IMG/VR virus record: IMGVR_UViG_3300028394_000002
Span: 32,998 to 96,997 of that record
Origin: a virus
Direction: 5' to 3' (one strand)
Length of the DNA: 64,000 bases
Shown: positions 9,143 to 39,486 of the stretch, in pieces
Position numbering within the stretch: position 1 is the first letter of the stretch
How the letters are laid out: each line of letters starts with the position of its first letter
Made by a program: the position numbers and the translations under genes
The notes under the pieces: generated by a model
Database searches by the model: none
The model's input: only the letters and a program-made list of their open reading frames with translations
Told to the model about the DNA's origin: nothing

Positions 9143-9145
9143 GAT

Positions 9146-17987: not shown

Positions 17988-18033
17988 AAACTTCAGTAGA
18001 AACTAAAGCTCGCCCTACTGGAGTTACGAGAGC
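17978..18033 (+). promoter_or_regulatory. -1 programmed ribosomal frameshift signal
   Basis: Slippery heptamer A_AAA_AAG (17978-17984); stem AACTTCAGTAG (17989-17999) pairing with CTACTGGAGTT (18015-18025); loop GCTCG could pair with downstream CGAG or GAGC. Confidence 0.8.
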
Positions 18034-19620: not shown

Positions 19621-22600
19621 ATGCCAGAAAATAATAACCCCTCATTTGATATAAATTTTTTACTAGCAAATGCGCAGAGTCAAGGAATAATAGGCTCTCC
19701 TTATAAAAATAGACAGTCGTTAATATTACCTACTGAAGAAGTTAGTCAGTATGATCAAGGGTATATGGTACCATTTGAAGGTGATCCTATGGATTCTTTT
19801 TATGAGCATAGAGCTATTAATCAGCCAGGTATTGATCAACTTGCTAATGGTGTAGTTAAAGGAGCTGGACTAGCTGTTACTACATTTGCAGATACTTTTG
19901 GAGGGACTGTATATGGAATAGGTAATATGATTGCTAAAGGTGCAGCTGGAGATATAGAATCAGGTGGAGATTTATTAAATGCTTTTGTTGACAATCCTTT
20001 TAGTAATGCTATGCAGGATTTTAATGAAGGGATGGAAAGTGCTTTTGCAAACTACAGAACTAAAGCTGAACAAGAAGGCGGATTATTAGATCAAATGTTT
20101 GATGCTGATAAAGCAGCTAACTTTTGGGGTGATATGTTTATTAAGAATCTAGGGTTTGCTGGAGGAGCTATGGCTGCTGGTATGGTTAGCGGTAATTTAT
20201 TTAGTAATTTAGGCAAAGCTTTTACTCAAAAGAAAGAAGTAGAGTTATTTAATAAAATGACTAAATCTATTGCTACTGGAGAGGCTAAAAATATAGATGA
20301 AGCTATTGCATTATTACAGCAAGCTCCTGAGTTAACTAATACAACAGCTGCTACTGTTAAAGGTATGCTTGAATCAGGCGCTAAGACTTACAGAAATTGG
20401 AATAGGGCTAATCAAATAACTTCCTCTGCTATAGCTGCAACTGGTGAAGCTAGGATAGAAGCTTTAGGTAATGGCAGACAATTCTATGATACCAACAAAA
20501 AAGCTTTAGATGAAGAATACTTTGACCCTACAACTAATAGAATTAAAGCTGGTAAGGAGCAAGAGTACGAAGAGAAGTTAAAAAGTCTTGATGAGAATGT
20601 TAAAGGATTTCAGAATGCTGAATTTCTTTGGAACTCTGTATTATTAACAGCTAGTAACTTTGCTGGGTATAGAGATATGTTTGCAAAAAACTATGCTTTA
20701 AATGCTAAGAGATTTGAAAACAGTATTAAGATGACTGCTTTAAATGAGTTAAAAGCTGGAGAGAACATAGCTACTGCTATTAAACCTAAATGGTATAGCA
20801 CTTTAGGTAAAGCTGCTATATCTTCTAATAGAGAAGGTATGGAAGAGTTTTTCCAAGGTGTAGTACAAAAGTCTGCTGAAGATTACTATTCAGGTAAATT
20901 TACAGGAGCTAAGCAAGGAGGTATTACAGATATTATTAGTAGTGTTGGCCAAGGTCTATCTAATTCTACTAATCAAGAAGGTCTTACTAATTATTTTTTA
21001 GGGGCCCTTACTGGATTAATAATGCCTGGTGCAGGACTTTACCAATCTTTTAAAGATGCTAACACTGAAAATGTAGAAGCACAAGAAAGAGCTGGTGAAA
21101 TTAATAAAGCTTTTAATGAGTACTCAGCAGAGTTAAAACAAGATCCTACTAGAACTATTATTAACTTCCAAGAGATGTTAAATAGAAGTGCTAATTTAGA
21201 TCAAGCACAACAACAAGCCTTACTAAGTAGTGATAAATATAACTATGAATCTTTAAAACATGAGAAGTTTTATAATTTAGCTAATGCTTATATCAAAGCT
21301 GGTAAATATGAAGAGCTTTCTGATATGTTAAAAGATGAAACTAAATTGTCTGCTGATGATATTAGGAATAAGTATACTATACCAGTAGACCCTAAAGATG
21401 AAACTAAAGGTAAAAAAAGTTTTTTTGATGCTAAATGGAGTGATGATGAGGTAATGACTTACATTAGAAAACAATCTAGCACTAATTTAAAAGCTGTTGA
21501 AGATTTAAAAAATGTTACTGAAGATTTAGAAGCTATGTTTGGTGAACAAATAGCTTTAGTTTCTGATGGAGATAAAACTAAACAAGTAGCTATTAAAGAT
21601 ATTTTAAATAGAAGTTTATATTTAGGTGAAACTCAGGATAAACGAATTATAGATGTTTATAATGAAGTTACTGCTACTATTATGAAGGTAACTAATAATG
21701 CTTATGTATTAGCAGATTTTAGTCAACTAAATCCAACTACTATTAAAAATTTAACCACTGAAGATTTAGATAAATTAGATGGGGCTATTGATTCTATTGC
21801 TAAATTAAATATTTCAAAAATAGAACAATTAGACTTAATAGAAAAGCTAAATGATTTAACCCAATTAATAGGGGAAAGAAAAGCAATGAACTCTGCTTGG
21901 ATTAGATTAACTAATAATAACTTTACTCAAACTTTAAATATTATAGCTAAGGCTGATAAAGAAGCTGTTGATACTAAAGCAGCTGAAGAGGCTAAACAAC
22001 TATCTGATAAAGAAAAGATTAACATAGTTAGAGAAAATTCTAAAAGAGCTGGTTGGGTAGATAAAGGAGGTAATGGAATTATTGGTAATCAATTTGTTAT
22101 GAAGGTTGCTGGTAAAAATACTGCATTTGAATTAGTGCCTATTAATATAACAGAGCTAAGAAAAGAGTTTGAAGATGAAAAAAATAAAGCGTTAGAAGGT
22201 TTAGATCCTATTACTGATAAAGAAAAGATAGCTGATATTATACAAAAGTATAATGATAAGCTACAAAGTATTATAGAGGATAGAAAGACTAAAGGATTAC
22301 TATTAAAAAATATTAAAACTGGAGAATACGTTAAAAATAAAAAAGGTGTACTACAGTTATTTAATGAGGAGTTTATAGTTAAATACTTTGATAAAATAAA
22401 TTTTGTTAATAAACAACAAACTTTAATTAATAAAGTAAAGTCTACAGCTATTAAAACTAATGCTGCTAAAATTAAAGCATTAGAAGCAGTTGCTAACACT
22501 TTAAATAAAGAGATTATAACTACTATAGAGGAAGCTAAAAAAGTATTACTTGAGCAAAATGCTTTAAAAGAAGAGTTAGCTTTTCAAAAAGAGTATTATA

Positions 22601-25600: not shown

Positions 25601-26595
25601 AAAATTACGAATCGTTAAGTAATGAGCTTGATAAATTAGATTTTAATATGATAATTAATGTAATGAGTAATGAGTCATTATCTAATGATCAAAAATTACA
25701 AAAAAGTAAAGATCTCACTTTAGATAGAAATAAGTGGCTTCAAGAAACTGTTAATATTTTAAATTCTTTACTATCTAAAATAGATTCTACTATTCCTAAA
25801 TTAGAGCCTATAAAAGCTACAAAAGAAAATACAGCAAGTATATCTAACTATAGTAATAAAGAAGTATTAGATAATTTAGTAGTTAATTTAAAAGCTAAAA
25901 ATAAAAGTAGTCATGAAAGAGTTATGACTATTCTTAATAAGTATGGCATCTCATTTGATGCTTTTATACAAAATATAGAAGATTATTATAAAGGTACTGC
26001 TGTAGTTACTACTCCTTCTAATACTATGAATGGAGAGTCTTTATTTCCTACTACATCAGAACCCGTAGTAGTACCTAGTAAAAGAGTTGAAGCAGAAAAA
26101 AAAGCTTTGCGAATTTTAAATATGTTTGCAACACCTGGTAATAAAGAAGTTGAATATCAAGGTGACGAGGGGGTGCCTGGAACTTCAGAAGATGAGGATA
26201 TTACAGGTCAAAATAATAGTACAATAGGTAAAATTATTGCTACTATAAAAAAATTACCTCCTATACCATACAATATTACATCTAGTAGTGTAGAAGAGTT
26301 TAAAGATAAGCTAACAGATGAATTAGTAGATGCTGGATTATTAAATGATATTGTTGATGTAATTTCTAATATTGATAAGTTAGTTAATGAGCAACTATCT
26401 GGTTTAAGTGAGGAAGCTCCTGAATCAGTTAAAGAAGTATCTTCTAATCAAAAAGTTAATGAAGATAAAACAGTAGATCAAGTAGCAGAAGAAATAAAAA
26501 AATGTACTGGAGTAGCATCTACTAAGAAACCAAGTGGTACTGAAACAGGTGACCTAAATAAGTTTAATGGTCAAAATAGAACTAAAAAAAAATAA
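19621..26595 (+). CDS. Giant virion cargo/ejection protein next to the virion RNAP
   Basis: 2324 aa; Gly/Ala-rich hydrophobic N-terminal helices, REGMEEFFQ motif and long coiled coil; position before the RNAP as in crAss-like phages. Confidence 0.7.
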   Translation: MPENNNPSFDINFLLANAQSQGIIGSPYKNRQSLILPTEEVSQYDQGYMVPFEGDPMDSFYEHRAINQPGIDQLANGVVKGAGLAVTTFADTFGGTVYGIGNMIAKGAAGDIESGGDLLNAFVDNPFSNAMQDFNEGMESAFANYRTKAEQEGGLLDQMFDADKAANFWGDMFIKNLGFAGGAMAAGMVSGNLFSNLGKAFTQKKEVELFNKMTKSIATGEAKNIDEAIALLQQAPELTNTTAATVKGMLESGAKTYRNWNRANQITSSAIAATGEARIEALGNGRQFYDTNKKALDEEYFDPTTNRIKAGKEQEYEEKLKSLDENVKGFQNAEFLWNSVLLTASNFAGYRDMFAKNYALNAKRFENSIKMTALNELKAGENIATAIKPKWYSTLGKAAISSNREGMEEFFQGVVQKSAEDYYSGKFTGAKQGGITDIISSVGQGLSNSTNQEGLTNYFLGALTGLIMPGAGLYQSFKDANTENVEAQERAGEINKAFNEYSAELKQDPTRTIINFQEMLNRSANLDQAQQQALLSSDKYNYESLKHEKFYNLANAYIKAGKYEELSDMLKDETKLSADDIRNKYTIPVDPKDETKGKKSFFDAKWSDDEVMTYIRKQSSTNLKAVEDLKNVTEDLEAMFGEQIALVSDGDKTKQVAIKDILNRSLYLGETQDKRIIDVYNEVTATIMKVTNNAYVLADFSQLNPTTIKNLTTEDLDKLDGAIDSIAKLNISKIEQLDLIEKLNDLTQLIGERKAMNSAWIRLTNNNFTQTLNIIAKADKEAVDTKAAEEAKQLSDKEKINIVRENSKRAGWVDKGGNGIIGNQFVMKVAGKNTAFELVPINITELRKEFEDEKNKALEGLDPITDKEKIADIIQKYNDKLQSIIEDRKTKGLLLKNIKTGEYVKNKKGVLQLFNEEFIVKYFDKINFVNKQQTLINKVKSTAIKTNAAKIKALEAVANTLNKEIITTIEEAKKVLLEQNALKEELAFQKEYYKLVGNIKEKGAINKSIKALEQRIAELEKVKEDISRVFNQLASQKNDLLLVVEEMKDSFKKGLDFSLNEFLEKLDQMNLESIDKIWAKKLSKDLEELANTDDIDYALNQLSILKDNVTEQIAALRKQVELLQTAINESDDFKNWVFATKIDDLPQWFKVKWKVADKYNLTTAELLEDPKIRALADYIFKKFATTYNLTIEEARAEFNKDLEEINLNLNYVNRQSLENEAVVTKQQLAELEQNLIDINNLIRFNNNRKLFENLNNALQSIKIEYSTILNRDRKDEISNLPDSQKAGDEEFNPKPIHTEIASRVLNSNALSDHLFYTTNMTVEYETNAEGKLETVYDADGYPVINKNEDSIRWNNFLEQNTPDITNSKYVLRTYLLSGAKIPADLKIDALKRISNGGGIHDPANDIVTVLVNTADGEFVKSDDQGEVSKTGKYVYTFLPKADTLIDNKGKSKVNLNALVNFFMRNASMEVKDPTNIHLTDPTKYITVGEKKLTPSQFKELVTNFAKANYNEFIAELKANMEANETTYLKAPGVTNGILLTRESNKDVAKSPMSSVAEVLKNKRGLDSQKPEDLENIGVYVIDNSEVWEIPGSGIKIKNGKKGAVIVYNKKTKEYFYANQRKISTEDKKLIIYYLQQSRTQTESSLSEKKLNIGNDGKSYYIADNMGNNEKVTDVPIFGKTGTLSLMNNIIFWGGSKNPGSKNTIYLKSNKVYFSNPNQGWAITAIDLANLDNPKYNLDFMAFLDTKRHNISKNMFATNKFYKHPYINGKGELAWKTYPNGYKEFLLNSKDPILITNAVSSNSKYNGNKMLFASKNVILDSSNNGKPKILNKLQTQPEPEPAPKPASTPGAKPSSGPAAGKDAPTEVEFDENKIVFGGNLPAGLRGASASATPVPTAKNLFEEVVEAHYGSFIYQSSKFTEQAGLRAPEIYGTNFEKVFRSIIKNKGLDSIIRAALFSRIGFIFENRLTNKTTGIQELVEYINKSFNLNIKIDSKNYESLSNELDKLDFNMIINVMSNESLSNDQKLQKSKDLTLDRNKWLQETVNILNSLLSKIDSTIPKLEPIKATKENTASISNYSNKEVLDNLVVNLKAKNKSSHERVMTILNKYGISFDAFIQNIEDYYKGTAVVTTPSNTMNGESLFPTTSEPVVVPSKRVEAEKKALRILNMFATPGNKEVEYQGDEGVPGTSEDEDITGQNNSTIGKIIATIKKLPPIPYNITSSSVEEFKDKLTDELVDAGLLNDIVDVISNIDKLVNEQLSGLSEEAPESVKEVSSNQKVNEDKTVDQVAEEIKKCTGVASTKKPSGTETGDLNKFNGQNRTKKK

Positions 26596-26598
26596 CGA

Positions 26599-29500
26599 AT
26601 GGCTAAAAGTTGTCCTAATCCAAAACACCCAGATTTTAAAGCATTAGTAAGTCAATATGGCGAACTTAATGCTTATAAACTTTACTATAAGAATAATAGT
26701 AAAATACCAACTACTCAAGAAGTTAAAGAGATAAAACGTCTAGACCCTAAGGTTATGACTAAGTTTATCTTTGAAGGTGTTGAGTTATCTACAAATGAAC
26801 AGTCTGAATTATTTGAAGGTTTAAAGTATTACTTTATAAAGAATTTAGTAAATAATTTAAGTAGTCTAGATGATTTTAGTAATCTATTAGATGATACTTT
26901 ATCTACTTCTAAATTCCAACAAGTTTATCAAGAAGCTTTATTAGATATGGTTAGTATGTTTGATGGTACTAATCCTAGACATATGGAAATAGCTTCTGCT
27001 ATCTCTCGTGACTTTCCTACTAGTTTTCTAGCAGACTACTTTAAATTTACCTATCCTGAAGATAGTGATCATGCTAATCTTATTTTAAATACATTTAAAG
27101 TAAAGATAGCTAACCTATTTAAATTTAAAGAAGGTGATGAAGATACTTCATTTGAATTGCAAAGTTCTATTGAAGAAGTTAGAGATAATTGGAATACTGA
27201 ATCTTTAGAGCAGAATAGAAAAGATAGTTTTTCTAGGGCCATTAAGTTACTTATATCAGGTATACCTAAGTTAAGTAAGCAAAATTTAGTAGACAATCCT
27301 ACAGGATACTCTGTAGATGATTATAATAATGCTATTTTAAGTGATAACTTAAATTTAGAATCTCCTATTGCCCAAAGTGAAGCTAATGACTTACTAATGA
27401 ATGTATTTGTTAATCAGCCTGCTGATATAAATGCTTTTATGAGAGTTATTAAAAATGAGAGAAAAACTAATCCTACTATTGAATGGTTACATCAAAAAGT
27501 ATTTTATCCTGAACAATTTATATTTGATGATAAAGGTAATGTACTATCTTTAAAAGATAATAATGAATCTAATTTACCAAGAATATCTTTAATAAATAAA
27601 TTTATATCTTCTTTTTCTAACACTAAATACGAATTTATTAACCAAGTTATTAATGGCGATGAGATAAAATCTCAAAATGCTGATACTAATAACATGCAAA
27701 ATAGAATGTTAAAAGAGTGGAGTGGGCAATTAGATATTGCTTTTACTGAAAATAAATCTAAAATAATTAACACTCTTAATGATAAGTATTCTAGCGAAGA
27801 AGAGATTTTAAAAGCTATAGGCTTTCCTTTAGCTTCTAAAGGTGTTATAACATCTAAAAAGAAAATAAAGGTCTTAGCAGGCTCTAAAACATTCTTTGAA
27901 GTTTATGCTGCTTTTCTAGGAGAATTTAAAACCTTTATAAAGAATGGTGGAAATCCTATAGATATATTCCAACAAGTAGGTAAAGAGCCTTCTACAATTA
28001 ATGTTCTAGCTACGGCTATGATAGAATTTAATGCTCCTTATAGAAATGATTATGATAATCAGCTTGCTAATGTTAGTGGTAATAACGTATCTAGTATTAA
28101 TTTAAATACTTATCAAACTTTAGTAATTAATAACTTAAATAGAGTTGTTGACTTAGTTAGAGATGAGTTAGGATATGATGGAGTAGATGCAGATACATTT
28201 AAAGATGTATATTTAAAACGATTAAATGAAATATACCCTGAGATACTTAATAGTTGGAGTTATGATAGTATTTGGTTAAATAAATATCTAGCTAAAGGTA
28301 CTAAAATAACAATGAGTTTAATTGCTGGTACTACTGCAGATAATGATGGGTTACCTACAAGTAAACTAGTAGAAAGTGATTTATGGAGTAGTTTTTTAAA
28401 TAATACTTTAGAGAATAACTTTCCTGCTATTAAACACGCTGATAGAAGTATGTTTCCTTCTTATAGTTTTGGGTATGGGGTAACTGATATATTTAGTGAT
28501 ATTGCTAGTAATTATACACCTACAAGCAATTGGAGAAGTATATTTAAAGGTTACTTACATGATTACTTTGTAAGTGAGTTAAAACGTGTTAGAAAAACTA
28601 GAGGTGATTATAAAGCTTATATAGAAAACTACGATACATTAGGACAAGAGTTTTTAGTATTTAATGGTATACTTGACACCTTTAAAAAAGATGCTAGCCA
28701 TCAAGCTAGATTAGAAGCTTTAATTAATTCAGATGAATTAGATTTTACTGGGAATAATTTTGTAAATAAACAAATGGATTCTTGGATAAATGATTACTTC
28801 GCTAAAACTAAAGCTGAATCTAGATTAGCTGGTATAAATGAATTAACTCCTGGAGCAGGCTTAAATAAAAATGTAATTAGTAATTTAACAGAATCTTTTA
28901 AATCTAAACCTGATACCTTTGAATTTTATGATGAAGCTATTGAGTTAGCCGCTGCTAAATTCTTTGTAGGAGCTGTAGAACAATCTAAGTTATTTTTAGG
29001 TGACCCTGCTTTTTATAAAATTAAAGGGTTTACTAATAACTTAAATAATGCTAGACAAGTAACTGCTGAAGAATCTATTTTAATATATGACTTTGTTAAG
29101 AGGGCTAATATGCAATCATCTACTAAGCAAGTTATGATAGTAGATAATGTAACTAATAGTTACTTAGAGAGCCTATTTAACAGTCCTAACTATAAGATAA
29201 AATTAAAAGATGGTGAAGAGTTTTTTTACAGAAAAAAATTTGATGGTACTTTAACTGAATTAGTTATTGACGATCCTAGAGTTGTAGCTCACATTAGAGA
29301 AGAACTAGCAAAGATATATCAAAATGATTTAGAATCTTTTGAAGCTTACTTTCCTAAAGGAGGGTTTGAAGAAACAGATGGTTATTCTTTAGGTAATATA
29401 TTCTTTGCTGCTGAAAGTATTTTTAGAACTGAAGGTATTAGCAGTAGTAGACTAGAAGTAGTTAAAAAAGAGTTAAAAGCTTTATCTGCTAATTCTCAAG

Positions 29501-32500
29501 AAGAGTTATATGGATTATATGAAATACCAGAGTCTTTTGATACTCCTGAGAAAATAAATAATTATATGAAGAATGTAATTAGACCTTTTACTCAGCAGAA
29601 GTATCAATATGTTGGGCCTAACTATATGATGAGTAAAGAAAACTATGCTCAACAAGATCCTGAAACTAGAACAGGTGTAATATCTAATCGTAAGAATTCT
29701 TATGGTATGCTTATACCTTCTTTAATTAGAGGTACTATTCTTGAAGATTTAAATATCTTTATGTTAAAGAATGGTATTGATACAATACATTTTGCTTCTG
29801 CTTCTAAAGTAGGAGCTCCTATTAGAGCTTCTAACACTCGTAGATTATTTTATACGCCTACAATAGTAGATGGTCAAATAGTAGGATTTGAAGGTTTTAA
29901 TAATGAACCTTTGCAACCTGGAGATATGGGTACATTAGATTATAGATATCTAGGTAAACAAAATGAAATAGCTTTTGAAATTAAACCTAAGGTAACTGAT
30001 TCTACACAAGGTAGAAAGACTATCCTTAGTGGTATTATGGAAGATGGTGAAAGACCTATTGATTTTAATGGTTCTCCTGAGCAGTGGGCTTCTTTAAGTG
30101 ACTTAGATAAATTAAACCAATCTAAACTTTGGAATAATGCTGTTGAATATGAAAATATTTATTCTGAATTAGTTGAGCAATTAACAGTAGAGTTATTAAA
30201 TGAATATAATACTACAGAAGGAACTAATTCATTAACTATTAATAATGGAGCTAAGTTTGCTAATTTAATTAGAAAAGCTGCTGTAGAAAGAGGAAGTCCT
30301 GATAATATACTAGAAGCTATTACTGATTGGGTTAACGATGAAGGAGGATTAAAGTATATTGAAAGTTTATCTAACTACCCTAAGATACAATATATCTTAA
30401 CTAGTTTAGTTACTAATAACTTACTTATCTTAAAAAGAAATGGTACTATGCTAGCTCAAGCTCCTAGTACTGGATGGGAATCTGGTAATAGAGAAGCGAG
30501 TAATGGTAAAGCTGTAGGCGGAGCTTTTTTAAAATTTTATGAATTTAGTTATGATAAAGATGGTAATATAATTGAAGTACACCCAGCTGAATGTGCACTA
30601 CCTTTTCCAATAGAAAAGCTACCTGGCCTATTTAAAAAGTACAGAACTAAAGATATTATTAAGGCTATTGATTTACTTAATGCTGATATAGAAGCTGGTT
30701 TTGTACCTCCAATTATAGTTAAAGGTTTAAGGATACCTAATCAACAGTTTAGCTCTAATGATGTACTACAAGTTAAGAAGTTTTTATATCCAATGTATAC
30801 TCAAACTATTATAGTACCTAATGAGATTATTGTAAAGACTGGAGGTGATTTTGATATAGATAAGGAAAGTTTATTCTTACCTTTCTTAGATGATAACTTT
30901 AATACTATATCTTCAGATAAGTTAGAAGGTACTAAAAAATTACAAGCTAGATTACTAGAAGTTGAAATAGAGATGTTATTAAACCCTGCTAGGATAGCTA
31001 GATTTTTAAAGCCTATTACTGGAGGAGATATACAAAAATTAGCTCAAATAGAGCAGAAGAAAACTTTAGGTACTGATAACTCTGTTAATAAACCTTTTAC
31101 TGATATATTTAAAATAGGCTCTTTAGTTAAATCAACTTTAGAATATGTAGGAGGTAAACAAGGTGTAGGTATTGTAGCTACTTGGATTACATTCCATAAG
31201 ATTATGGAAATGTATAATAAATCTTTAAAAGATGGTACTAAGTTTTCTATAACTAGTATACAAATTGGAAATTATGTACAAGAAGTAGAAGATGTATTGT
31301 CTGCTCTTATTACAAGTCAGGTAGATATTGTTAAAGATAGCTATTCAGCTGTTGTTAACATTGTACTAGATACCTTAAATCCTGTTTGTTATATGGTATT
31401 ACAAGGGTACTCTGTGTCAGATATTATCTCTGTAGTTAATTCCCCTGTTATAAGAGAATACTATAGATTAAGAAATAAAAGTAATGCTAAGTCAATTAGT
31501 GTAAAAAGAGGTCTAAATAAAAAAGAAGATATTATTAAGTATCTAAGTAAAGAGTTTCCTAATGAACAAAATGAGTTATATACATGGATAGCTATAGAAG
31601 ATTCTGCTAATAAGATAACAGATGTTAAAACTGAACTATCAGCTGATACTAAATATCAAAAAAGTCCTAGTGACGTACAAGCTCTAGAAACTCTTTATAA
31701 AGAGATTACTGGTGAAAATGGTATATTTAGTAAAGAAACTATAGATGACTTAATGAACAATAGTTTATTAACTCCTTTTATTAAATCTAGAGAGTTAATA
31801 TCTAAATGGTTTGATCAACTTTATCTTACTAAGAGTACTGAAAGAATGAGAGATCTAACAGAAGATTTAAGAGCTAAAGCTTTTGACCATATTAAAAATA
31901 AAGAAATTAATAGTAAAGCTAGACAAAGATTTGATGAAAACCTTATTAACTACTTAATTCAAAATACTAAAAATAATACACAGTTTAAAGGTAAGTTTGA
32001 TACTTTATTTAAAGGTGATAATAGTATAGCTAGAAGAATACTTAAAGCTAAAAAGAATCCAGCTTTTGAAAATAACTATTTAATTAATCAATTAGTAGCT
32101 CAATTAGATAATAAGCTAGGTATTAATGAGAATGAAAAGATAGATAACTTAAAGTTATATGCAGGTAAATTAACAGATAGCGAAGCTAATAGTTTAGCTC
32201 AAGCATTTGCAGATATTAAAAAGATAGATGAAAATTTATATGATGATTTAATAGTATTTAATATATTCCAATCTGGTATAAGTAATAGTACTTACCAACT
32301 TAATAAGGTTTTACCTTACGAAGCTCAAAAGAAAGTATTAGACTTTATAGCTACTATGGATGTTAAAGGTATTACTAATAAAGTACTCGCTGATTTCTAT
32401 GTTAAATTCTTCTTAGCTAATCCTAATCAAATTAATAAAAAACCTAAAGTAGGTAATATATTTTCTCCGTTTAAAAAGGATTTTTCTACTGGTAAGTTAG

Positions 32501-33414
32501 TTATTTTAATTAATGGTGTTAATAGTGAGAGTATCGGCCCTATAGGAGGGTTTAATGCTATTGATTATACTAGACCTTTAACTGGGGAAGTTGCTAATAA
32601 AGCTGCTGAAATTGAAGAGTACTTAAATGGTTATGAAGTTAGAAATATTATGGAAAGAATAACTGGTAAAGTTGCTGAAGTAAGTTCTAGCGGGTCTACT
32701 ACATCTACTCAACCATCTACTAGTGTTAAAGTAATTCCTCTAAATGAATCACAAAGATTTACTAGAGAATCAGCTGAAAAAGATACAGAGTATATGTATT
32801 TATTTACAGATAATGCTGGTAGAACGTCAGGCTCAGGAGTTATTGATCCTAACAGTTGGTATGCTAAAAAATATGGTGTAGATAAAAAATATGCAAGTAA
32901 AACACAAGCTGTAGCAAGAGGTCTTAAAAATGTTTATCCTATTACTACAATGGTAGATGATAAGAGAACTCAATGGACAGATGACCAATTTAATGAATAC
33001 AAGAAAATTATTGATGATGAAATAGAAACTATTAAACAGGCATCTAAGAAGTATAATGGTATTAAGTTTGGTGCAGAAATGCCTTTTGGTAAAGGTGCTA
33101 TTTCTAATATGAAAGACAGTGCTCCTAAAATATGGAATTATCTTAATACAAAACTTGCTGAAATAGGTATTGATAATACGGGAGATATACCTGTATCTAC
33201 TCAATCACAAGCTACTACTTCTACTGAAGATAAAAAAGCTGATACTTTTTATAACCTTGAAGATTTCACAAATGAGCAAAAAGTTATTATATTAGATAAT
33301 ATGATAGCTAAAAAAATGTCTGCTGATAAAAATAATGCTTTAATTCAAATAGAAGCTCAATTACTAAAAGATAGAAAATCAACTATTGAGTTTTTAAAAT
33401 CTTGTTTAACTTAA
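26599..33414 (+). CDS. Virion-packaged two-barrel DNA-dependent RNA polymerase (phi14:2 gp66-like)
   Basis: 2271 aa; LRIPNQ followed by catalytic GGDFDIDK (30841-30864); ETDG and GKQGVGIVA motifs. Confidence 0.9.
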   Translation: MAKSCPNPKHPDFKALVSQYGELNAYKLYYKNNSKIPTTQEVKEIKRLDPKVMTKFIFEGVELSTNEQSELFEGLKYYFIKNLVNNLSSLDDFSNLLDDTLSTSKFQQVYQEALLDMVSMFDGTNPRHMEIASAISRDFPTSFLADYFKFTYPEDSDHANLILNTFKVKIANLFKFKEGDEDTSFELQSSIEEVRDNWNTESLEQNRKDSFSRAIKLLISGIPKLSKQNLVDNPTGYSVDDYNNAILSDNLNLESPIAQSEANDLLMNVFVNQPADINAFMRVIKNERKTNPTIEWLHQKVFYPEQFIFDDKGNVLSLKDNNESNLPRISLINKFISSFSNTKYEFINQVINGDEIKSQNADTNNMQNRMLKEWSGQLDIAFTENKSKIINTLNDKYSSEEEILKAIGFPLASKGVITSKKKIKVLAGSKTFFEVYAAFLGEFKTFIKNGGNPIDIFQQVGKEPSTINVLATAMIEFNAPYRNDYDNQLANVSGNNVSSINLNTYQTLVINNLNRVVDLVRDELGYDGVDADTFKDVYLKRLNEIYPEILNSWSYDSIWLNKYLAKGTKITMSLIAGTTADNDGLPTSKLVESDLWSSFLNNTLENNFPAIKHADRSMFPSYSFGYGVTDIFSDIASNYTPTSNWRSIFKGYLHDYFVSELKRVRKTRGDYKAYIENYDTLGQEFLVFNGILDTFKKDASHQARLEALINSDELDFTGNNFVNKQMDSWINDYFAKTKAESRLAGINELTPGAGLNKNVISNLTESFKSKPDTFEFYDEAIELAAAKFFVGAVEQSKLFLGDPAFYKIKGFTNNLNNARQVTAEESILIYDFVKRANMQSSTKQVMIVDNVTNSYLESLFNSPNYKIKLKDGEEFFYRKKFDGTLTELVIDDPRVVAHIREELAKIYQNDLESFEAYFPKGGFEETDGYSLGNIFFAAESIFRTEGISSSRLEVVKKELKALSANSQEELYGLYEIPESFDTPEKINNYMKNVIRPFTQQKYQYVGPNYMMSKENYAQQDPETRTGVISNRKNSYGMLIPSLIRGTILEDLNIFMLKNGIDTIHFASASKVGAPIRASNTRRLFYTPTIVDGQIVGFEGFNNEPLQPGDMGTLDYRYLGKQNEIAFEIKPKVTDSTQGRKTILSGIMEDGERPIDFNGSPEQWASLSDLDKLNQSKLWNNAVEYENIYSELVEQLTVELLNEYNTTEGTNSLTINNGAKFANLIRKAAVERGSPDNILEAITDWVNDEGGLKYIESLSNYPKIQYILTSLVTNNLLILKRNGTMLAQAPSTGWESGNREASNGKAVGGAFLKFYEFSYDKDGNIIEVHPAECALPFPIEKLPGLFKKYRTKDIIKAIDLLNADIEAGFVPPIIVKGLRIPNQQFSSNDVLQVKKFLYPMYTQTIIVPNEIIVKTGGDFDIDKESLFLPFLDDNFNTISSDKLEGTKKLQARLLEVEIEMLLNPARIARFLKPITGGDIQKLAQIEQKKTLGTDNSVNKPFTDIFKIGSLVKSTLEYVGGKQGVGIVATWITFHKIMEMYNKSLKDGTKFSITSIQIGNYVQEVEDVLSALITSQVDIVKDSYSAVVNIVLDTLNPVCYMVLQGYSVSDIISVVNSPVIREYYRLRNKSNAKSISVKRGLNKKEDIIKYLSKEFPNEQNELYTWIAIEDSANKITDVKTELSADTKYQKSPSDVQALETLYKEITGENGIFSKETIDDLMNNSLLTPFIKSRELISKWFDQLYLTKSTERMRDLTEDLRAKAFDHIKNKEINSKARQRFDENLINYLIQNTKNNTQFKGKFDTLFKGDNSIARRILKAKKNPAFENNYLINQLVAQLDNKLGINENEKIDNLKLYAGKLTDSEANSLAQAFADIKKIDENLYDDLIVFNIFQSGISNSTYQLNKVLPYEAQKKVLDFIATMDVKGITNKVLADFYVKFFLANPNQINKKPKVGNIFSPFKKDFSTGKLVILINGVNSESIGPIGGFNAIDYTRPLTGEVANKAAEIEEYLNGYEVRNIMERITGKVAEVSSSGSTTSTQPSTSVKVIPLNESQRFTRESAEKDTEYMYLFTDNAGRTSGSGVIDPNSWYAKKYGVDKKYASKTQAVARGLKNVYPITTMVDDKRTQWTDDQFNEYKKIIDDEIETIKQASKKYNGIKFGAEMPFGKGAISNMKDSAPKIWNYLNTKLAEIGIDNTGDIPVSTQSQATTSTEDKKADTFYNLEDFTNEQKVIILDNMIAKKMSADKNNALIQIEAQLLKDRKSTIEFLKSCLT

Positions 33415-33425
33415 AATAAAATAAA

Positions 33426-33836
33426 ATGTTACCTAAATTAAAAGGAAGTCAAATGGAACCTAGCGGATCAACTAAAATGGCTGTACAAGCTATATCACAA
33501 TGCTTATTTGAAGCTGAAATTCAAATGCATATAGTACATCTACAAGCAAGAGATAAATCATTTGCAATGCATGAGGCACTTGGTGCATTCTACTCATCAT
33601 TAGCTGATTTAAATGATGATTTAGTAGAGAAAAGTTTTGTTAAAACTGGTCTTATGTTAAACTATTCATCAATGATGATTACTAATAATGTAGAGCCTAT
33701 CTCTTATATTAAGAAAGAGATGGCTAAGATTGAGGCTATGAGAGCTAGAGTTACTGAAGGATATATAGAGCAAATGATTGATAATATATTAGAACAATTT
33801 GCTCACGTAATTTATAAATTAGAAAACTTACACTAA
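33426..33836 (+). CDS. Ferritin/Dps-like four-helix protein (DUF5856-like)
   Basis: 136 aa; HLQ..SFAMHEALG.FY..L.D.LVE and terminal IYKL.NL pattern. Confidence 0.65.
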   Translation: MLPKLKGSQMEPSGSTKMAVQAISQCLFEAEIQMHIVHLQARDKSFAMHEALGAFYSSLADLNDDLVEKSFVKTGLMLNYSSMMITNNVEPISYIKKEMAKIEAMRARVTEGYIEQMIDNILEQFAHVIYKLENLH

Positions 33837-35326
33837 TGGCTACATTCTGTATAACTTCTAGTAACCCAGAATTCCAAAAGTTATTAGCTGAAAGTAAAAA
33901 GCAGCCATTAGAATTTGAAATGATGGTTTCTAAATGGATGACTGAATCTGGAATACACAATAGATACCCGACTTTACAAGAGTTGGGTATTACTACTATG
34001 GAGAGTGTTAAACCAGAAGTAGATAATAATTCTTTTTTTCAACTTGATAAATCAAAACTTCCTGCGGCTGAAAAAAAACTTGATGACCAGCTTCTTTTAT
34101 TTCTTAATGAATTTGGGGTAACAACTAAAGAATTAAATGACTTTAAAAAAAGATTTGGTGTAGATGCTTTAGGGGCTACAGATGTTATACAAAAGCTTAT
34201 ATATTTATCATCTAAAAGAAACATAACTACAGTACCTGAAGAAGCTGCTCATATGATAGTTATGCTTATGGGTAAAAACCATCCATTAATTAAAGAGGCT
34301 TTTACAAATATAGAAAGTTGGTCAGGATATAATAGTGTTAAAAAACAATATATGCCAATTTATAAAGATGAAAATAAAGTTAAAATAGAAGCTTTAGGAC
34401 ATCTTATAAGAGATGCAATTGTTAATCAATACACATCTAAAAATCCTGTTGAAAAAACATTATTACAAAAAATTAAAGCTTTAATTGATGAGTTCTTTAA
34501 ATCTATCCGTAGTAAATTTAATATTAAAAAAAATAATCGTATAGTCTATGATAAACAAGCTGTTGTAAAAATAGCTGAAGGAATGCTAGCTGGAGATAAA
34601 TCATTAGTAACATCTCAAAAATCATTTGCTTACTCAAATGTAGATTATAATAAGGCTTTAGATCAAGACCTTCTTTCAAAACAAATAGTTAATGAGTACA
34701 CAGAAAATCTTCCATTTAAACTTGCTGGCAGTCTAGCTATTGCTAAACAAACAAATATAGAAAGATGGAGAGGTGAGCAGATTCATGATCTTGATTTTAA
34801 AGTATCTCAAAAATGGTTAGATGAAAATGGGCAAGAAGCTTTTGATAAGTTAATGGATAAACCAAATATTGTTAAATTAAGAGAAATAAAAAATGAGTCT
34901 AATAATTATATTACAAAAAGTTATTTACAAGCTTCAAAAGGATATAGAATAGAAACTAAAAGAAAAATTAATCCTAGTGCTCCAATGTTTGATATAAATG
35001 TTTATGGTCCAAATAATAATTTATTGCCTATATTAGAAGGAGCTAAAAAAATTAAAACTTTAGATTTTTTTATTGGTGGTAATGAGGAAGAATCTTTTGA
35101 AAATGTAGCATCATGGCAAGATATTTTTGAAGGTAAACTTAGTTTATCCCCATTAGGACAAAAAGAGTTAATGTTTGATAGACCTAAAGATCAGACTGAC
35201 TACATAAATGTATTACCTGTTAATTTACAAGAAAGTAAATACAAAAATTTATATTACCAAACTAGTAACGAAGATATTATAGAAGAATTAGTACAAGAAA
35301 ATAAATTAGAAAGAAAATGCCAGTAA
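33836..35326 (+). CDS. Cargo protein with a degenerate zincin domain and a Pol-beta-fold nucleotidyltransferase domain
   Basis: 496 aa; PEEAAH...EALG (HExxH-derived); LAGSLA...HDLDF...LDFF...RPKDQTD. Confidence 0.55.
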   Translation: MATFCITSSNPEFQKLLAESKKQPLEFEMMVSKWMTESGIHNRYPTLQELGITTMESVKPEVDNNSFFQLDKSKLPAAEKKLDDQLLLFLNEFGVTTKELNDFKKRFGVDALGATDVIQKLIYLSSKRNITTVPEEAAHMIVMLMGKNHPLIKEAFTNIESWSGYNSVKKQYMPIYKDENKVKIEALGHLIRDAIVNQYTSKNPVEKTLLQKIKALIDEFFKSIRSKFNIKKNNRIVYDKQAVVKIAEGMLAGDKSLVTSQKSFAYSNVDYNKALDQDLLSKQIVNEYTENLPFKLAGSLAIAKQTNIERWRGEQIHDLDFKVSQKWLDENGQEAFDKLMDKPNIVKLREIKNESNNYITKSYLQASKGYRIETKRKINPSAPMFDINVYGPNNNLLPILEGAKKIKTLDFFIGGNEEESFENVASWQDIFEGKLSLSPLGQKELMFDRPKDQTDYINVLPVNLQESKYKNLYYQTSNEDIIEELVQENKLERKCQ

Positions 35327-38300
35327 ATTGTCCAATAGACCCAAGTAAGTTTGATATTCAAACTGTTAGAGATTTAGTTAACCAAAAGAAATTTGAATTC
35401 TTAAAAGGAAATCCTAATGATACAGTTGAAGATGTTATAGCTAGAAGAAAGATACTACAAGGATTATTTACAACTGAGCTTGTAGACAATAGTAAACTTA
35501 CTAAAGGCTTACATTTAGATGGCTCAGGTAAGACTTCTAGATATGTTTGGATAGATACTAAAGAGTTAGCTGTTCAAGGTCGTGTAACAGATAAAAACAA
35601 AGCTGCTTTTGTTAAAAGACGAGGTAAAGAAGCTTCTGATGAGCTATCTAACTTACCTGATAATGAAGTAAAAAGAAATGGAGGTACTAAGTTTCATAAA
35701 GCTGCTCAAGATTTAACTAATATTTTTAAGAATAAGTATGCTAAATTTATAGAAAACCCTCCTAGTAAGGAAGAATTAAAAACTGTTCAAGAAATTAGTG
35801 ATGAGTTAGGATTAAATCCTCAAGACTTTGAAGCTTTGTTTTTTGAGATAGAAAAGTTAGTTAAATTAGGTATTGATATACAAAAAGATATAGACCCTAC
35901 TAAAAAGGTATTTATTCAAGCTGAAGATTTTAATTTAGATACTGATGGTTCTAAAGGGGGTACAGCTGACTTATTTTTTCTTTTTAGTGATAAATCTGGT
36001 GGGGTACTTGATTATAAAACTATGACTCCTCATTATAGTAAGCTAGATGCTAATGGTAATATAGTTAAAGATGATTGGATTCCTGGTTACAAGATAGAAG
36101 AATTTAATGTGCAATTACCTACTCTTATGGATATGTATAAGAAGACAGGAGTTAAAAATTTTAGGTTTGCTAGAATTATGCCTGTTCAAATAGGATTTGT
36201 TGAGAAGAAAAAAGCTGATCCTACTAAAAAAGAAGGTGCTAGGCTAACTGATGTTATTACTACTATTAAAATGGGAGAGGATTCTGATAAAAAGAAATTT
36301 CTTACTCCTATTCCTATTACTTTAGAAAGTACTGGGGTAGCTGGATTAGATGAAGCTTTATCAAAAGCTAATAAATTAAAGCATAACTTAACTAAAAGGT
36401 TAGAAAGATTAGCTGATGAAACAGCTGAAGCTTTTAAACTTAGAGGTAGAATTAAGAAGTTAAATTCTTTGATTAACTCTATTATGTTAAAGAAAGATAT
36501 TAAAGGGTTTACTGAACTTTATAATGGTCTTATACAAGGCTATTTAGATATTAATAGAACGCTTAAATCCGATTACCTAGAAGAAGGTAACACTTTGTAC
36601 TTAAACCTATCTAAGATTGATGATTTAATGTCGGATTTACAACTCTTTAAAGCTATTGCTAATAGTACCCCTGACTTTATTAAAAGTATTCCTGAGGATA
36701 AAGCTAATGCTTTAGATAGAGCTGCATATTTTGCTAACTTAGATACTATTGCAGGTGTTGCTAATAATCTAGAAGAGGCTTTAAAACAAAGAACAATAGA
36801 TTTAACTTTAAATTTAGATGACAGAGCTGCTATGCTCGGAGATAAAAACTTAACTTGGTTTGATAAATTGCTCCGTAGATTTAGTAATATTAACAATACT
36901 ATATTTAAAAAAGCTAGAACTATTATTGAAGGTGCTAACACTAAAACAAGATTAGATTTAATAAAGTTTACTGATAAATTAGATAAACTTAATAAAGAAC
37001 TTCAAGTTTGGGGTGCTGCTAATGGATTAGGTGGTTTTAAAGTTTATGATTTACTTATTAACAAGAAGTCAGGTAATTTACATACTAAGTTTAAAAGTGA
37101 GTTATATGATGAATTAGAAGAAGCTAGAAGAGAGAAAGATGACAAAACTTTAGATAGTATGGTAAAACTTAAAGAAGACTATAAAGAGCTTTATCAAGCA
37201 GCTTTACAAAAACACATGATTATAAATTCTTATACTATGGGTGATATACAAACTAATAAGGATTTAATTGAATGGATTAATGAGAACAATCCAGATTTAA
37301 AATCTTCTACTAGTAAATATAGTGATTATTGGTATAAGTATTATGAAATAGATCCTTCTAAAGTAAGTGAAAATTTACTTAATCCTGAATATGCTAAGAT
37401 TAGAAGTACTCCAGCTTTGTTAAATTACTATAATTTCTGGGAAGAAAGTATGGAGCAATTTAGAAGCTTGCTTGATATACAGTATACTAAAGTACCTAAT
37501 AACTTTATACCTTGGATAAAAGGTAATACTATGGAGCAGTTTATGAATGGCTCTACTGTATTTTCTAAAGAAAACTTTATGAACATAATGAGTGTTCAAG
37601 AAAACAATACTATTCTTTATAAAGAAGGTTATATAACATTAAGAGGAGAAATAGACCCAGCTACTGGATTACAAAAAAGAGAGATACCTAAATACTTTAT
37701 TAATCCTTTAGTTAATAACCAAGGTGATATAGATAATACTTTAAAGTCTTTTGATTTGTCTTCTAGCTTAGCTGTATTTGCTCAAATGGCTTTTAGTTAT
37801 AATAACTTAAAACATACTGAGAGTACTATTGAAGCTTTAAAAGATATACTTGCTGAAAAAGGTGTTAACCAAACTACAGCCGATGGTAAAGAAGTTAGAA
37901 TTAACAATGATCAAAAAGCTCAAACAGAAGAAGGTCCTCAAACTGAGGAGTCTAGGTTATTTGAAGATATGGTTAACTATCACTTATACGGAGTATTCTA
38001 TAAAGATAAACCTAGTAAGCTTAAACAAGGCCTTTTAAAAATTAAGCAGTATCAACAAATAAAAGAACTTGCTATTTCTCCTATATCTAATCTAGTTAAC
38101 TTAATGGGGGCTAGAACTAATGCTTTCTTTGAGGGTGATAAAGGATATTTCTATACTAAAACTATGTGGGGTAAGTCTTTAAAAGATAGATACTCTAATG
38201 AAAAAAAGCCTTTATACTTTGCTCTAGCTAATTTTATACAGCCTTATGCAGGTAAACCTGAAGATCGTAAATCTATGCCTTGGCTAGATAAGGTAGCTAA

Positions 38301-39486
38301 AATGGGGAAAAATAATTTAGCTCAAAATATAAATTATAATACTTTATTTGCTGGATTTAGAGTAGGTGATGAACATATAGATGAGCAAGTAATGTATTCT
38401 ATGTTACAAAACTATGGGCTAGATAAAAATAATAATTTAGTTAGACTTAATGCTAAGCGTTTAGAAGAGGGTTTAAAGTCTTTACTAGATAATAGTAAGA
38501 TAGAAGGAGAAGCTCTTATTGTGGAGGGTTTAATTGATAAAGAAGGTAATGTTAATGCTGAGTTATATTCTCAATTAAGAAACCTTGTATTAAATACTAC
38601 TACAACTATTAAAGGAGGTCTGAACTCTGAAGATATGAATGCCGCTAACATGACTGTTATGGGTAAGCTATTTATGAGTTTTAGAAACTGGTTACCTGCT
38701 TTAGCTGAAGAGAGATTTAGAGGAGTAGATAATATACTATCACAACAATCTTTAAGATACAATCCACAAACTAATACAGTTACTGAAGCTAGATATACTG
38801 CTTTATTAAGTGACGTAGTAGATCCTGAAGCTGTTGGAATATTAAATTTAGTTAAATATGTAGGATTAGCTAGTGCTAAATTAGCTGCTAATATGCTACC
38901 TTTTGTTAAAAATAGTAAGTTTGCTCAAGTTAATGAAAATAGAGCTAGAGTTTTATATGATAATTTTTTAAAAGAGAATGAACATCTACCTGCTGTTAAA
39001 AATGGTAGCCTTACATTTGAAGATTTTTTAGAATATAAGCAAGGTCAGATTAGAGCTTTAGCAACTGAAATAACTTATATTTTAACTTTATTAGTATTAC
39101 TTGGAATACTTGGCGGAGGGTTTGATGATGACGATAAGTTCGCTAAAAAAAATTGGGCAACGCGCCAGTCTTATAGAATTCTTAATAGGTATCGTAGAGA
39201 GCTTATGGGAATAGTTAATCCTGGAGATTGGATAACATTACTTAATAATCCTTTACCTATACTAGGACTAGTAATTAATGCTACTAAAACTATACAAAAT
39301 ACTTTTGATGAGGGGTTTGATGAAATTTTTGGAGAGGCCGAAGGTAGAAGTCTAGTTAACATTATGGGTAACAAGAAGATAAAAGATAAAAAAGAAAAAC
39401 TCTATTATCTTTATAAATGGATACCAGGTTATAAGTTTATAAACTTATTTGAGCCTACAAAAACAACTCAATCTAGTAAATACTAA
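35317..39486 (+). CDS. Large cargo protein with an N-terminal PD-(D/E)XK (RecB/Cas4-like) nuclease domain and a C-terminal hydrophobic helix
   Basis: 1389 aa; GTKFH...AE...GTADL...VLDYKT...QL; MSFRNW motif; hydrophobic YILTLLVLLGILGG. Confidence 0.65.
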   Translation: MPVNCPIDPSKFDIQTVRDLVNQKKFEFLKGNPNDTVEDVIARRKILQGLFTTELVDNSKLTKGLHLDGSGKTSRYVWIDTKELAVQGRVTDKNKAAFVKRRGKEASDELSNLPDNEVKRNGGTKFHKAAQDLTNIFKNKYAKFIENPPSKEELKTVQEISDELGLNPQDFEALFFEIEKLVKLGIDIQKDIDPTKKVFIQAEDFNLDTDGSKGGTADLFFLFSDKSGGVLDYKTMTPHYSKLDANGNIVKDDWIPGYKIEEFNVQLPTLMDMYKKTGVKNFRFARIMPVQIGFVEKKKADPTKKEGARLTDVITTIKMGEDSDKKKFLTPIPITLESTGVAGLDEALSKANKLKHNLTKRLERLADETAEAFKLRGRIKKLNSLINSIMLKKDIKGFTELYNGLIQGYLDINRTLKSDYLEEGNTLYLNLSKIDDLMSDLQLFKAIANSTPDFIKSIPEDKANALDRAAYFANLDTIAGVANNLEEALKQRTIDLTLNLDDRAAMLGDKNLTWFDKLLRRFSNINNTIFKKARTIIEGANTKTRLDLIKFTDKLDKLNKELQVWGAANGLGGFKVYDLLINKKSGNLHTKFKSELYDELEEARREKDDKTLDSMVKLKEDYKELYQAALQKHMIINSYTMGDIQTNKDLIEWINENNPDLKSSTSKYSDYWYKYYEIDPSKVSENLLNPEYAKIRSTPALLNYYNFWEESMEQFRSLLDIQYTKVPNNFIPWIKGNTMEQFMNGSTVFSKENFMNIMSVQENNTILYKEGYITLRGEIDPATGLQKREIPKYFINPLVNNQGDIDNTLKSFDLSSSLAVFAQMAFSYNNLKHTESTIEALKDILAEKGVNQTTADGKEVRINNDQKAQTEEGPQTEESRLFEDMVNYHLYGVFYKDKPSKLKQGLLKIKQYQQIKELAISPISNLVNLMGARTNAFFEGDKGYFYTKTMWGKSLKDRYSNEKKPLYFALANFIQPYAGKPEDRKSMPWLDKVAKMGKNNLAQNINYNTLFAGFRVGDEHIDEQVMYSMLQNYGLDKNNNLVRLNAKRLEEGLKSLLDNSKIEGEALIVEGLIDKEGNVNAELYSQLRNLVLNTTTTIKGGLNSEDMNAANMTVMGKLFMSFRNWLPALAEERFRGVDNILSQQSLRYNPQTNTVTEARYTALLSDVVDPEAVGILNLVKYVGLASAKLAANMLPFVKNSKFAQVNENRARVLYDNFLKENEHLPAVKNGSLTFEDFLEYKQGQIRALATEITYILTLLVLLGILGGGFDDDDKFAKKNWATRQSYRILNRYRRELMGIVNPGDWITLLNNPLPILGLVINATKTIQNTFDEGFDEIFGEAEGRSLVNIMGNKKIKDKKEKLYYLYKWIPGYKFINLFEPTKTTQSSKY

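Follow-up and report, generated by a model that had tools for sequence, protein, structure and literature searches.

In the putative RNA polymerase cargo block of a crAss-like phage, four large proteins carry their few cysteines mainly at those ends that adjoin each other in gene order. The block lies in a stretch of 64,000 nucleotides, in the following called the window (positions 32,998 to 96,997 of the IMG/VR record IMGVR_UViG_3300028394_000002). The record represents a complete virus of 96,997 bp with direct terminal repeats and a G+C content of 29%. The cysteine pattern is conserved in related phages and strictly tied to whether the respective genes are split or fused. Judging from the sequences and from an analogous structure in another phage, the adjoining ends are probably joined to each other, with a disulfide as the most likely link. 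It seems rather probable to us that these ends dock head to tail and that disulfides join the proteins into a chain of ~6,500 residues, which would be reversible by reduction in the host. Among the phages of the human gut, crassviruses are the most abundant. It is an open question how they pack their megadalton protein cargo in the correct ratio and deliver it in an ordered manner; this cargo includes the RNA polymerase (RNAP) on which the first transcripts depend.

Cysteine positions in the cargo proteins of the window

The crassvirus late block on the + strand comprises a muzzle-like open reading frame (ORF), four cargo ORFs, and ORFs of 2324, 2271, 136, 496, and 1389 amino acids (aa), in this order (Table 1). 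All of the latter five except the 136-aa ORF are candidates for a chain of linked proteins. These four contain 8 cysteines in 6,480 residues, of which 6 are found at the three adjoining ends and none at the outer ends. The 2324-aa protein has no N-terminal cysteine and a single one, C2295 (codon 26503-26505), 29 residues before its C-terminal end. In the 2271-aa RNAP, C5 (codon 26611-26613) and C2269 (codon 33403-33405; 2 residues from the end) are accompanied by the internal residues C1332 and C1597, which are also present in the closest relative, locus L001. The 496-aa protein only has C5 (codon 33848-33850) and C495 (codon 35318-35320), the codon of the latter overlapping the ATG of the following gene. 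C5 (codon 35329-35331) is the sole cysteine of the 1389-aa protein, which has none at its C-terminal end. Hence, the junction pairs in gene order are C2295 and C5 (2324-aa protein/RNAP), C2269 and C5 (RNAP/496-aa protein), and C495 and C5 (496-aa/1389-aa protein).

Cysteine accounts for 0.06-0.07% of these cargo proteins compared to 1.2-1.3% of other ORFs. In the remaining ORFs of the window its content is 1.3%, and only 2 out of 33 carry a cysteine within residues 2-7 or the last 6 residues. Random placement of at least 6 of the 8 cysteines in the six junction-facing end zones has a probability of 6e-10, these zones having been picked after seeing the data.

A recount per ORF confirmed every cysteine position and count given in a preliminary description of this DNA, including the complete lack of cysteine in the four cargo ORFs located upstream (Table 1). 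That description had arranged the four proteins as a chain A-B-C-D in gene order. The layout of the end cysteines agrees with such a chain, but two aspects have to be revised. Firstly, an ORF of 136 aa (33426-33836) with a single cysteine, C26, had been overlooked between the RNAP and the 496-aa genes. Because of this intervening gene, a link established in cis during translation is excluded at that junction. The encoded DUF5856/Dps-like protein probably stands outside the chain. Its gene is found at differing cargo junctions, following the RNAP gene in the window and the gene of a 901-aa protein in L001 (18117-18470).

Secondly, homology mapping assigned the 496- and 1389-aa proteins to one ancestral protein. 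The former aligns to residues 139-454 of cr108_1 gp052, 173-391 of crAss001 gp49, and 3938-4080 of a fused ORF in L058. The latter aligns to residues 515-1702 of cr108_1 gp052 and 4280-5258 of the L058 ORF, and also matches crAss001 gp49. By homology, both are to be regarded as the halves of a gp49/gp65-like protein that was split in this clade. The 2324-aa protein aligns with the N-terminal part of fused giant ORFs in relatives and the RNAP corresponds to their middle. In ancestral terms, the putative chain should be viewed as consisting of three proteins (gp47-like, RNAP, and gp49/65-like), with the last one split in this clade.

Conservation of terminal cysteines across Crassvirales

Following a check proposed in the preliminary description, we found the terminal cysteines conserved and co-occurring in homologues across Crassvirales. 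L001 keeps all three pairs though the flanking residues differ. Its 1789-aa protein has a sole cysteine 17 residues from the end, its RNAP has C5 and a cysteine as last residue, its 901-aa protein C2 and likewise a last-residue cysteine, and its 1389-aa protein C6. L005 is equivalent, with all three pairs and the sole cysteine of the gp47-like protein 24 residues from the end. Exactly one cysteine, located at residue 3-6, was found in 7 out of 7 homologues of the 1389-aa protein in the database, down to 21% identity.

A scan of IMG/VR with an alignment of the 1389-aa family yielded 80 loci; the RNAP alone as query recovered one relative. Among 65 complete pairs (44 clusters at 90% identity, 32 at 70%, and 11 at 50%), the cysteine pair was present in 63, with a cysteine 0-5 residues from the end of the large upstream ORF and at residue 3-6 of the next ORF. 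Furthermore, an exhaustive profile search of 1.84 billion representatives resulted in 126 full-length members of the last-protein family, clustered at 50% identity. A cysteine occurs in the first 8 residues of 117 of these representatives, at residue 3 in 73 of them, and 97 of the 117 contain exactly one cysteine. When the C-terminal 350 residues of the RNAP from 21 diverse homologues are aligned, G243 and the terminal cysteine are the only near-invariant columns. Likewise, the first 500 residues of the 496-aa family (21 homologues) show invariant columns only at M1 and C5. The mean column identity of these end alignments is 16-18%.

The same rule applies to reference phages. In crAss001, the sole cysteine of gp47 is C2339, followed by just 2 more residues; gp50 carries C5 as well as C2404, which lies 8 residues before its end; and C5 is the sole cysteine of gp49. 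In phi14:2, the sole cysteine of g067 is its last residue, g066 only contains C3 and C2179, and g065 only C3. In p-crAssphage, gp45 ends with ..SCM and gp44 starts with MSC. The rule was also found in cr271_1, cr118_1, cr6_1, cr130_1 and Suoliviridae genomes. In cr6_1 (L115) and cr130_1 (L117), in which it still holds, the late cargo genes contain 57-74 in-frame stops under translation table 11. These stops are consistent with the stop-codon recoding known in some crassviruses.

In crAss001, gp50 and gp49 are encoded on one strand and gp47 on the other. Moreover, whole genes intervene at junctions in the window (33426-33836), L001, L068, and L007. Thus, the cysteine pair is not a signal of the junction on DNA or mRNA level.

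Covariation with gene fusion and gene splitting

The preliminary description had also proposed that terminal cysteines should be lost at junctions where the genes are fused, and this was the case. Of 27 loci extended upstream, 24 have the gp47-like and RNAP genes fused to a single ORF of 3,660-5,320 aa. No cysteine was found at the fused junction. None of the 24 fused proteins has an N-terminal cysteine and 23 have a C-terminal one, that of L011 lying 64 residues in. The protein encoded next always carries an N-terminal and never a C-terminal cysteine. At these 24 loci, cysteines are therefore present at 47 out of 48 junction-facing ends versus 0 out of 48 outer ends (Fisher p 1.5e-26, kinship ignored). 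In ORFs comprising all parts, of 5,485 aa in L058 and of 5,544 aa (P0021), there is not a single cysteine. Forms of 3,056, 2,699, and 3,006 aa, in which the family match starts only past residue 1,100, likewise have none.

Conversely, newly formed ends carry cysteines. The clade-specific split into 496 and 1389 aa has its own pair at the new junction. Splits associated with homing endonuclease genes (HEGs) show a pair at the new ends in 2 out of 3 cases, L068 and L007. In L068, a free-standing GIY-YIG homing endonuclease gene is inserted into a gene that its close relative L074 has as one ORF of 2,306 aa, and the resulting ends read ..KKAPCE and MAC.... The arrangement in L007 is the same, a GTG start giving MSNC. 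The GIY-YIG gene is located at ~26590-27060 of L068 joined with L109. HEGs within the gp49/65-like gene were also found at 568-1281 in L007 and 158-1027 in L016. A P-loop kinase-like domain of ~230 aa in the unsplit protein of L074 is absent in L068.

L011 and L068 encode small linker proteins, 131 and 229 aa long, respectively, that carry a cysteine at either end. The one in L011 (MSC...DKCY) accounts for one apparent exception to the rule; others are explained by a 201-aa ORF ending with ..DPSCPF in L006 and by the GTG start in L007. Between the giant RNAP fusion and the linker, L011 encodes a 766-aa ORF (joined 25724-28024) with the CxxC motif CWSC at residues 40-43, which could represent a redox-active insert.

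The break between gp054 and gp053 in cr108_1 (L083, NC_055878.1) has no cysteine pair. A group I intron (RF00028, 80 bits, E 1e-20) was detected at 33375-33693 in the virion RNAP gene of this phage, beside the DFDxD region. Since the break is this intron, the RNAP protein is continuous. In the cr108_1 record the two exons are annotated as separate hypothetical proteins.

A shared N-terminal head module

The similarity of two of the N-termini noted in the preliminary description is real. Residues 1-43 of the RNAP match residues 1-49 of the 496-aa protein in a profile-profile comparison (probability 88%, E 3e-6). RNAPs and gp49/65-like proteins share a head module of ~45 residues with the pattern C-P-N...[WF]-x2-L...G...A...[IV]-P-[TS], which in the RNAP reads C-P-N...F-x2-L...G...A...I-P-T. 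In an AlphaFold2 (AF2) model of the 496-aa protein, which has a predicted local distance difference test score (pLDDT) of 54 and is confident only at residues ~80-230, C5 is located in a low-confidence tail before two short helices. With this poor model, Foldseek found nothing in the PDB at E <= 0.001. No phage protein was recovered when PDB sequences were searched with profiles from two of the alignments.

Proposed linkage of the cargo proteins

The cargo proteins are depleted of cysteine, which is common among ejected phage proteins, yet each keeps one per end that adjoins the next protein. We propose that the C-terminal tail of one protein would dock onto the short N-terminal head module of the next, and that the two thiols would close into an inter-protein disulfide inside the particle. 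Separately translated proteins may in this way become one head-to-tail chain of ~6,500 residues, functionally equivalent to the single giant polyprotein of related phages. At most junctions, only 0-5 residues separate the cysteines from the protein ends, so that the joint would leave no more than a tiny stub. Because of this tiny stub the chain could be packaged at a 1:1 ratio and exit through the tail from N to C like one polypeptide. The reducing cytoplasm of the host would then separate its parts. We infer the bond chemistry, the direction of threading, the release by reduction, and a packing ratio set by the clasp.

If true, a redox-reversible head-to-tail chain would provide a concrete and cheaply testable mechanism for packing and delivery of the cargo, and would account for the varying number of genes, from one to four, into which this block is divided among lineages. 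More tentatively, and with a good deal of doubt, this may be extended to a "cysteine clasp" that is general and modular, in which a short tail at the C-terminal end and a head of ~45 aa, with one cysteine each, might repair any break of the giant polyprotein post-translationally, including breaks caused by gene fission, domain shuffling, and the insertion of homing endonucleases. As many as four proteins or more, ~0.7 MDa or more, might then be packaged in a fixed ratio, injected as a covalent thread, and cut by host reduction. Such a redox-reversible polyprotein would explain how frequent splitting is tolerated in essential cargo genes.

The closest precedent is found in the cyanopodophage A4. 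Its structure determined by cryo-electron microscopy (cryo-EM) shows a disulfide between C1715 of gp27 and C5 of gp26, the C-terminal helix of gp27 being inserted into gp26 (PMC12002296). Alternating gp27 and gp26 subunits build a pentameric ring ("mortise-and-tenon"), and both proteins are carried in the capsid and ejected; the disulfide locks the inserted helix (PMC12002296). According to the A-4L genome (NC_024358), C1715 is the sole cysteine in the 1717 residues of gp27, as is C5 in gp26 (MSKHC). The window shows the same features, a lone cysteine near the C-terminal end of the upstream protein, a lone cysteine near residue 5 of the downstream protein, and exclusion of cysteine elsewhere. 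In contrast, A4 has one bond between two proteins, is a 42-kb phage of the Saffermanviridae, and has no RNA polymerase cargo. For the window three bonds in series are predicted, with a shared head module and with covariation with fusion and splitting across the order, which the A4 paper does not treat (PMC12002296).

The preliminary description knew of no earlier account of such a chain. This stands for crassviruses and for a multi-link chain, since a full-text literature search found no paper describing the terminal-cysteine rule for Crassvirales or such a chain. It does not stand for a single bond, as one head-to-tail disulfide between ejection proteins has been published for A4 (PMC12002296). 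If the proposed linkage is true, the single observation in A4 would become a widespread principle of phage protein ejection.

Among crassviruses, crAss001 gp47/gp50/gp49 and phi14:2 g067/g066/g065 are homologous to the proteins of the window, with the same order of functions, the DFDxD RNAP, and the terminal-cysteine rule. The window differs in the split of the gp49/65-like protein into 496 and 1389 aa and the additional cysteine pair. The gp47, gp49, and gp50 proteins of crAss001 and g065-g067 of phi14:2 were detected in virions by mass spectrometry, and this cargo is expected to be ejected partly unfolded (PMC10172136; bioRxiv 10.1101/2020.03.07.982082). By homology, the cargo proteins of the window are presumably virion-borne and ejected as well. 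Both papers are silent on terminal cysteines and on covalent links of the cargo. The tail of crAss001 particles and their portal-vertex protein gp57 do contain inter-subunit disulfides (PMC10172136).

In some phages the cargo is fused to one polyprotein (Drobysheva et al.; bioRxiv 10.1101/2020.03.07.982082), which was proposed to be cut after synthesis, perhaps by a zincin-like protease domain (bioRxiv 10.1101/2020.03.07.982082). These fused giant ORFs of 3,700-5,500 aa contain the same domains in the same order. They are linked by peptide bonds and have no junction cysteines, whereas the link in the window would be post-translational and undone by reduction rather than proteolysis. The giant ejected proteins of N4-like phages (Schitoviridae gp50/gp71 family), including the virion RNAP, are almost free of cysteine, and their few cysteines were attributed to annotation errors (PMC11445570). 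In contrast to these proteins with essentially no cysteine, the cargo block described here, at 0.06-0.07%, strictly keeps one per adjoining end.

Several observations weigh against the proposed disulfide chain. Gut crassviruses inhabit anoxic settings, which makes the timing of thiol oxidation problematic. Three similar heads and tails imply that the specificity of pairing must come from docking. For the 496-aa protein, AF2 gave a poor model. At the first junction in the clade of the window the cysteine lies 17-29 residues from the C-terminal end, so that the stub is not always tiny. The HEG-associated split in L016 shows no N-terminal cysteine, though the contig begins at that spot. Orphan cysteines exist in p-crAssphage (L113, BK010471.1), where C856, 1 residue from the end, is the sole cysteine of the 857-aa protein gp47 (5600-8173), and in L012, where it is the last residue of a 1242-aa protein (joined 9121-12849). 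The gene following either of them has no facing N-terminal cysteine. The disulfides reported in the cryo-EM study of crAss001 are confined to gp57 and the tail, the RNAP cargo not being resolved (PMC10172136). Finally, no homology of the window proteins to A4 gp26 and gp27 was detected by BLASTP (E > 0.1), by profile searches of PDB sequences, or by Foldseek with the poor 496-aa model. The likeness to A4 may therefore be convergent.

Alternative explanations

The ends may be linked but form a static clasp in a symmetric pre-ejectosome or inner body of alternating subunits, with a role in assembly and as a trigger of disassembly and not in threading. The only solved example, the pentameric ring of A4 gp27 and gp26, is described in this way (PMC12002296), and the crAss001 capsid has a large cargo zone with unresolved contents (PMC10172136). 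The strict head-to-tail polarity, the equivalence to a polyprotein, and the location of the cysteines 0-5 residues from the ends are no less consistent with a linear chain. We consider a purely static function somewhat unlikely; clasp and thread are mutually compatible.

It is improbable, in our view, that the thiol pair is bridged by a metal ion (Zn, Fe, or Cu) or joined by other sulfur chemistry. Shared metal sites had been considered in the preliminary description as well. Such a bridge could form in the reducing cytoplasm, where assembly takes place, and would suit gut crassviruses as phages of anaerobes. In addition, no thioredoxin-fold gene (PF00085) was found in the genome and, hence, no obvious redox helper of that family. 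Against a bridge, there is a single cysteine per end with no conserved histidine, aspartate, or second cysteine nearby, the terminal cysteines being the only conserved residues of ligand type. The A4 structure shows a plain disulfide, and disulfides do form in crAss001 particles.

Binding of the terminal cysteines to a third partner, such as the portal, the inner capsid surface, or a DNA-end protein, or to their own kind in tail-tail or head-head homodimers appears slightly less probable still. The orphan C-terminal cysteines of p-crAssphage gp47 and the L012 protein would fit this explanation, and crAss001 gp57 forms a homodimer via disulfides (PMC10172136). However, the two cysteines of a junction are gained and lost jointly as genes split and fuse, the first head and the last tail never carry one (none at the 48 outer ends), and the precedent in A4 is heterotypic, joining a C-terminal to an N-terminal end.

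A by-product of chance, base composition, or a nucleic acid signal at the junction (translational coupling or ribosome hopping between cysteine codons) has a practically negligible probability: most junctions are tight, with overlaps of 1-4 nt as well as the overlap of the C495 codon with the next ATG, but the low chance expectation in the window alone, conservation at 20% identity, persistence across the gene inversion in crAss001 and the intervening genes in the window, L001, L068, and L007, and the exclusion of cysteine from the rest of these proteins all argue against it.

Three further candidates were rejected. A split intein acting by trans-splicing requires an N-fragment of ~100 aa starting with cysteine and a C-fragment of ~35 aa before the +1 cysteine, for which there is no room with cysteines 0-5 (at most 29) residues from the C-terminal end and at residue 2-6 of the next protein. 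Programmed bypassing of the T4 gene 60 type or ribosome hopping is ruled out by the opposite strands of crAss001 gp47 and gp50 and by whole genes intervening in the window, L001, and L068. A lipoprotein or lipidation signal is ruled out by the lack of a signal peptide.

Gene content of the cargo block and further observations

Table 1. Features of the cargo gene block in the window
Feature	Position	Strand	Evidence or remark
Muzzle-like ORF	4226-9142	+	PHROG 28748, E 3e-91
Upstream cargo ORFs, 1643, 610, 677, and 385 aa	9146-19615	+	Context of the putative chain, not members; 0 cysteines in 3,315 aa
610-aa cargo ORF	14084-15916	+	Pfam crAss_CARG1; glycine zipper
Putative chain member 1, gp47-like cargo protein, 2324 aa	19621-26595	+	BLASTP against crAss001 gp47, E 1e-39
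Putative chain member 2, virion RNAP, 2271 aa	26599-33414	+	DFDID motif; homology to known RNAPs
N-terminal head module of the RNAP, ~43 aa	26599-26727	+	Profile-profile match to gp49/65-like N-termini
DUF5856/Dps-like ORF, 136 aa	33426-33836	+	Pfam DUF5856, E 5e-11; PHROG 858, E 2e-15
Putative chain member 3, 496 aa, N-terminal piece of ancestral gp49/gp65-like protein	33836-35326	+	Homology mapping
Putative chain member 4, 1389 aa, remainder of ancestral gp49/gp65-like protein	35317-39486	+	Homology mapping

As is characteristic of the RNAP cargo of Crassvirales, the window contains a giant DFDxD protein flanked by gp47 and gp49/gp65 homologues, located downstream of muzzle and cargo C1 genes. 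The catalytic DFDID motif of the RNAP comprises residues 1417-1421 (nt 30847-30861). This protein matches phi14:2 g066, annotated as "Catalytic RNA polymerase subunit", and crAssphage RNAPs (tblastn) as well as crAss001 gp50 and p-crAssphage gp44 (tblastn/BLASTP). No match to PHROGs or Pfam was obtained for the 2324-, 496-, and 1389-aa proteins. Taken from its sequence, the block appears to be a virion-packaged RNA polymerase cargo block of a crAss-like phage. The 1643-aa cargo ORF contains a peptidoglycan-binding domain and has weak matches to endolysin-like PHROGs (E about 3e-4).

Two of the upstream cargo ORFs may be connected by frameshifting. The reading frame of the ORF at 18458-19615 stays open for 157 codons further upstream without any ATG, GTG, or TTG (17963-19615, + strand). 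The preceding 677-aa ORF ends with ..GGA AAA AAG TAG, and the -1 slippery heptamer A_AAA_AAG is located in phase before the stop codon (17978-17984). A -1 shift at this site would join the 677-aa ORF and the next ORF to a protein of ~1,220 aa. A hairpin of 11 bp starts 4 nt 3' of the slippery site; its fold is not significant (z -1.2). The extra ORF at 18458-19615 does not occur in L001 and L005.

A different cysteine-rich N-terminal motif was found in the gene following the cargo block in L021 (13959-15644), L024 (13784-17560), L029 (14058-20918), L044 (13690-15477), and many more loci. In this motif, cysteine occupies positions 5, 10, and 18, for example in MNVTCSATPCPV. These proteins are large and some contain 26-64 cysteines. 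They probably represent tail fibres or spikes with an anchor stabilised by metal or disulfides.

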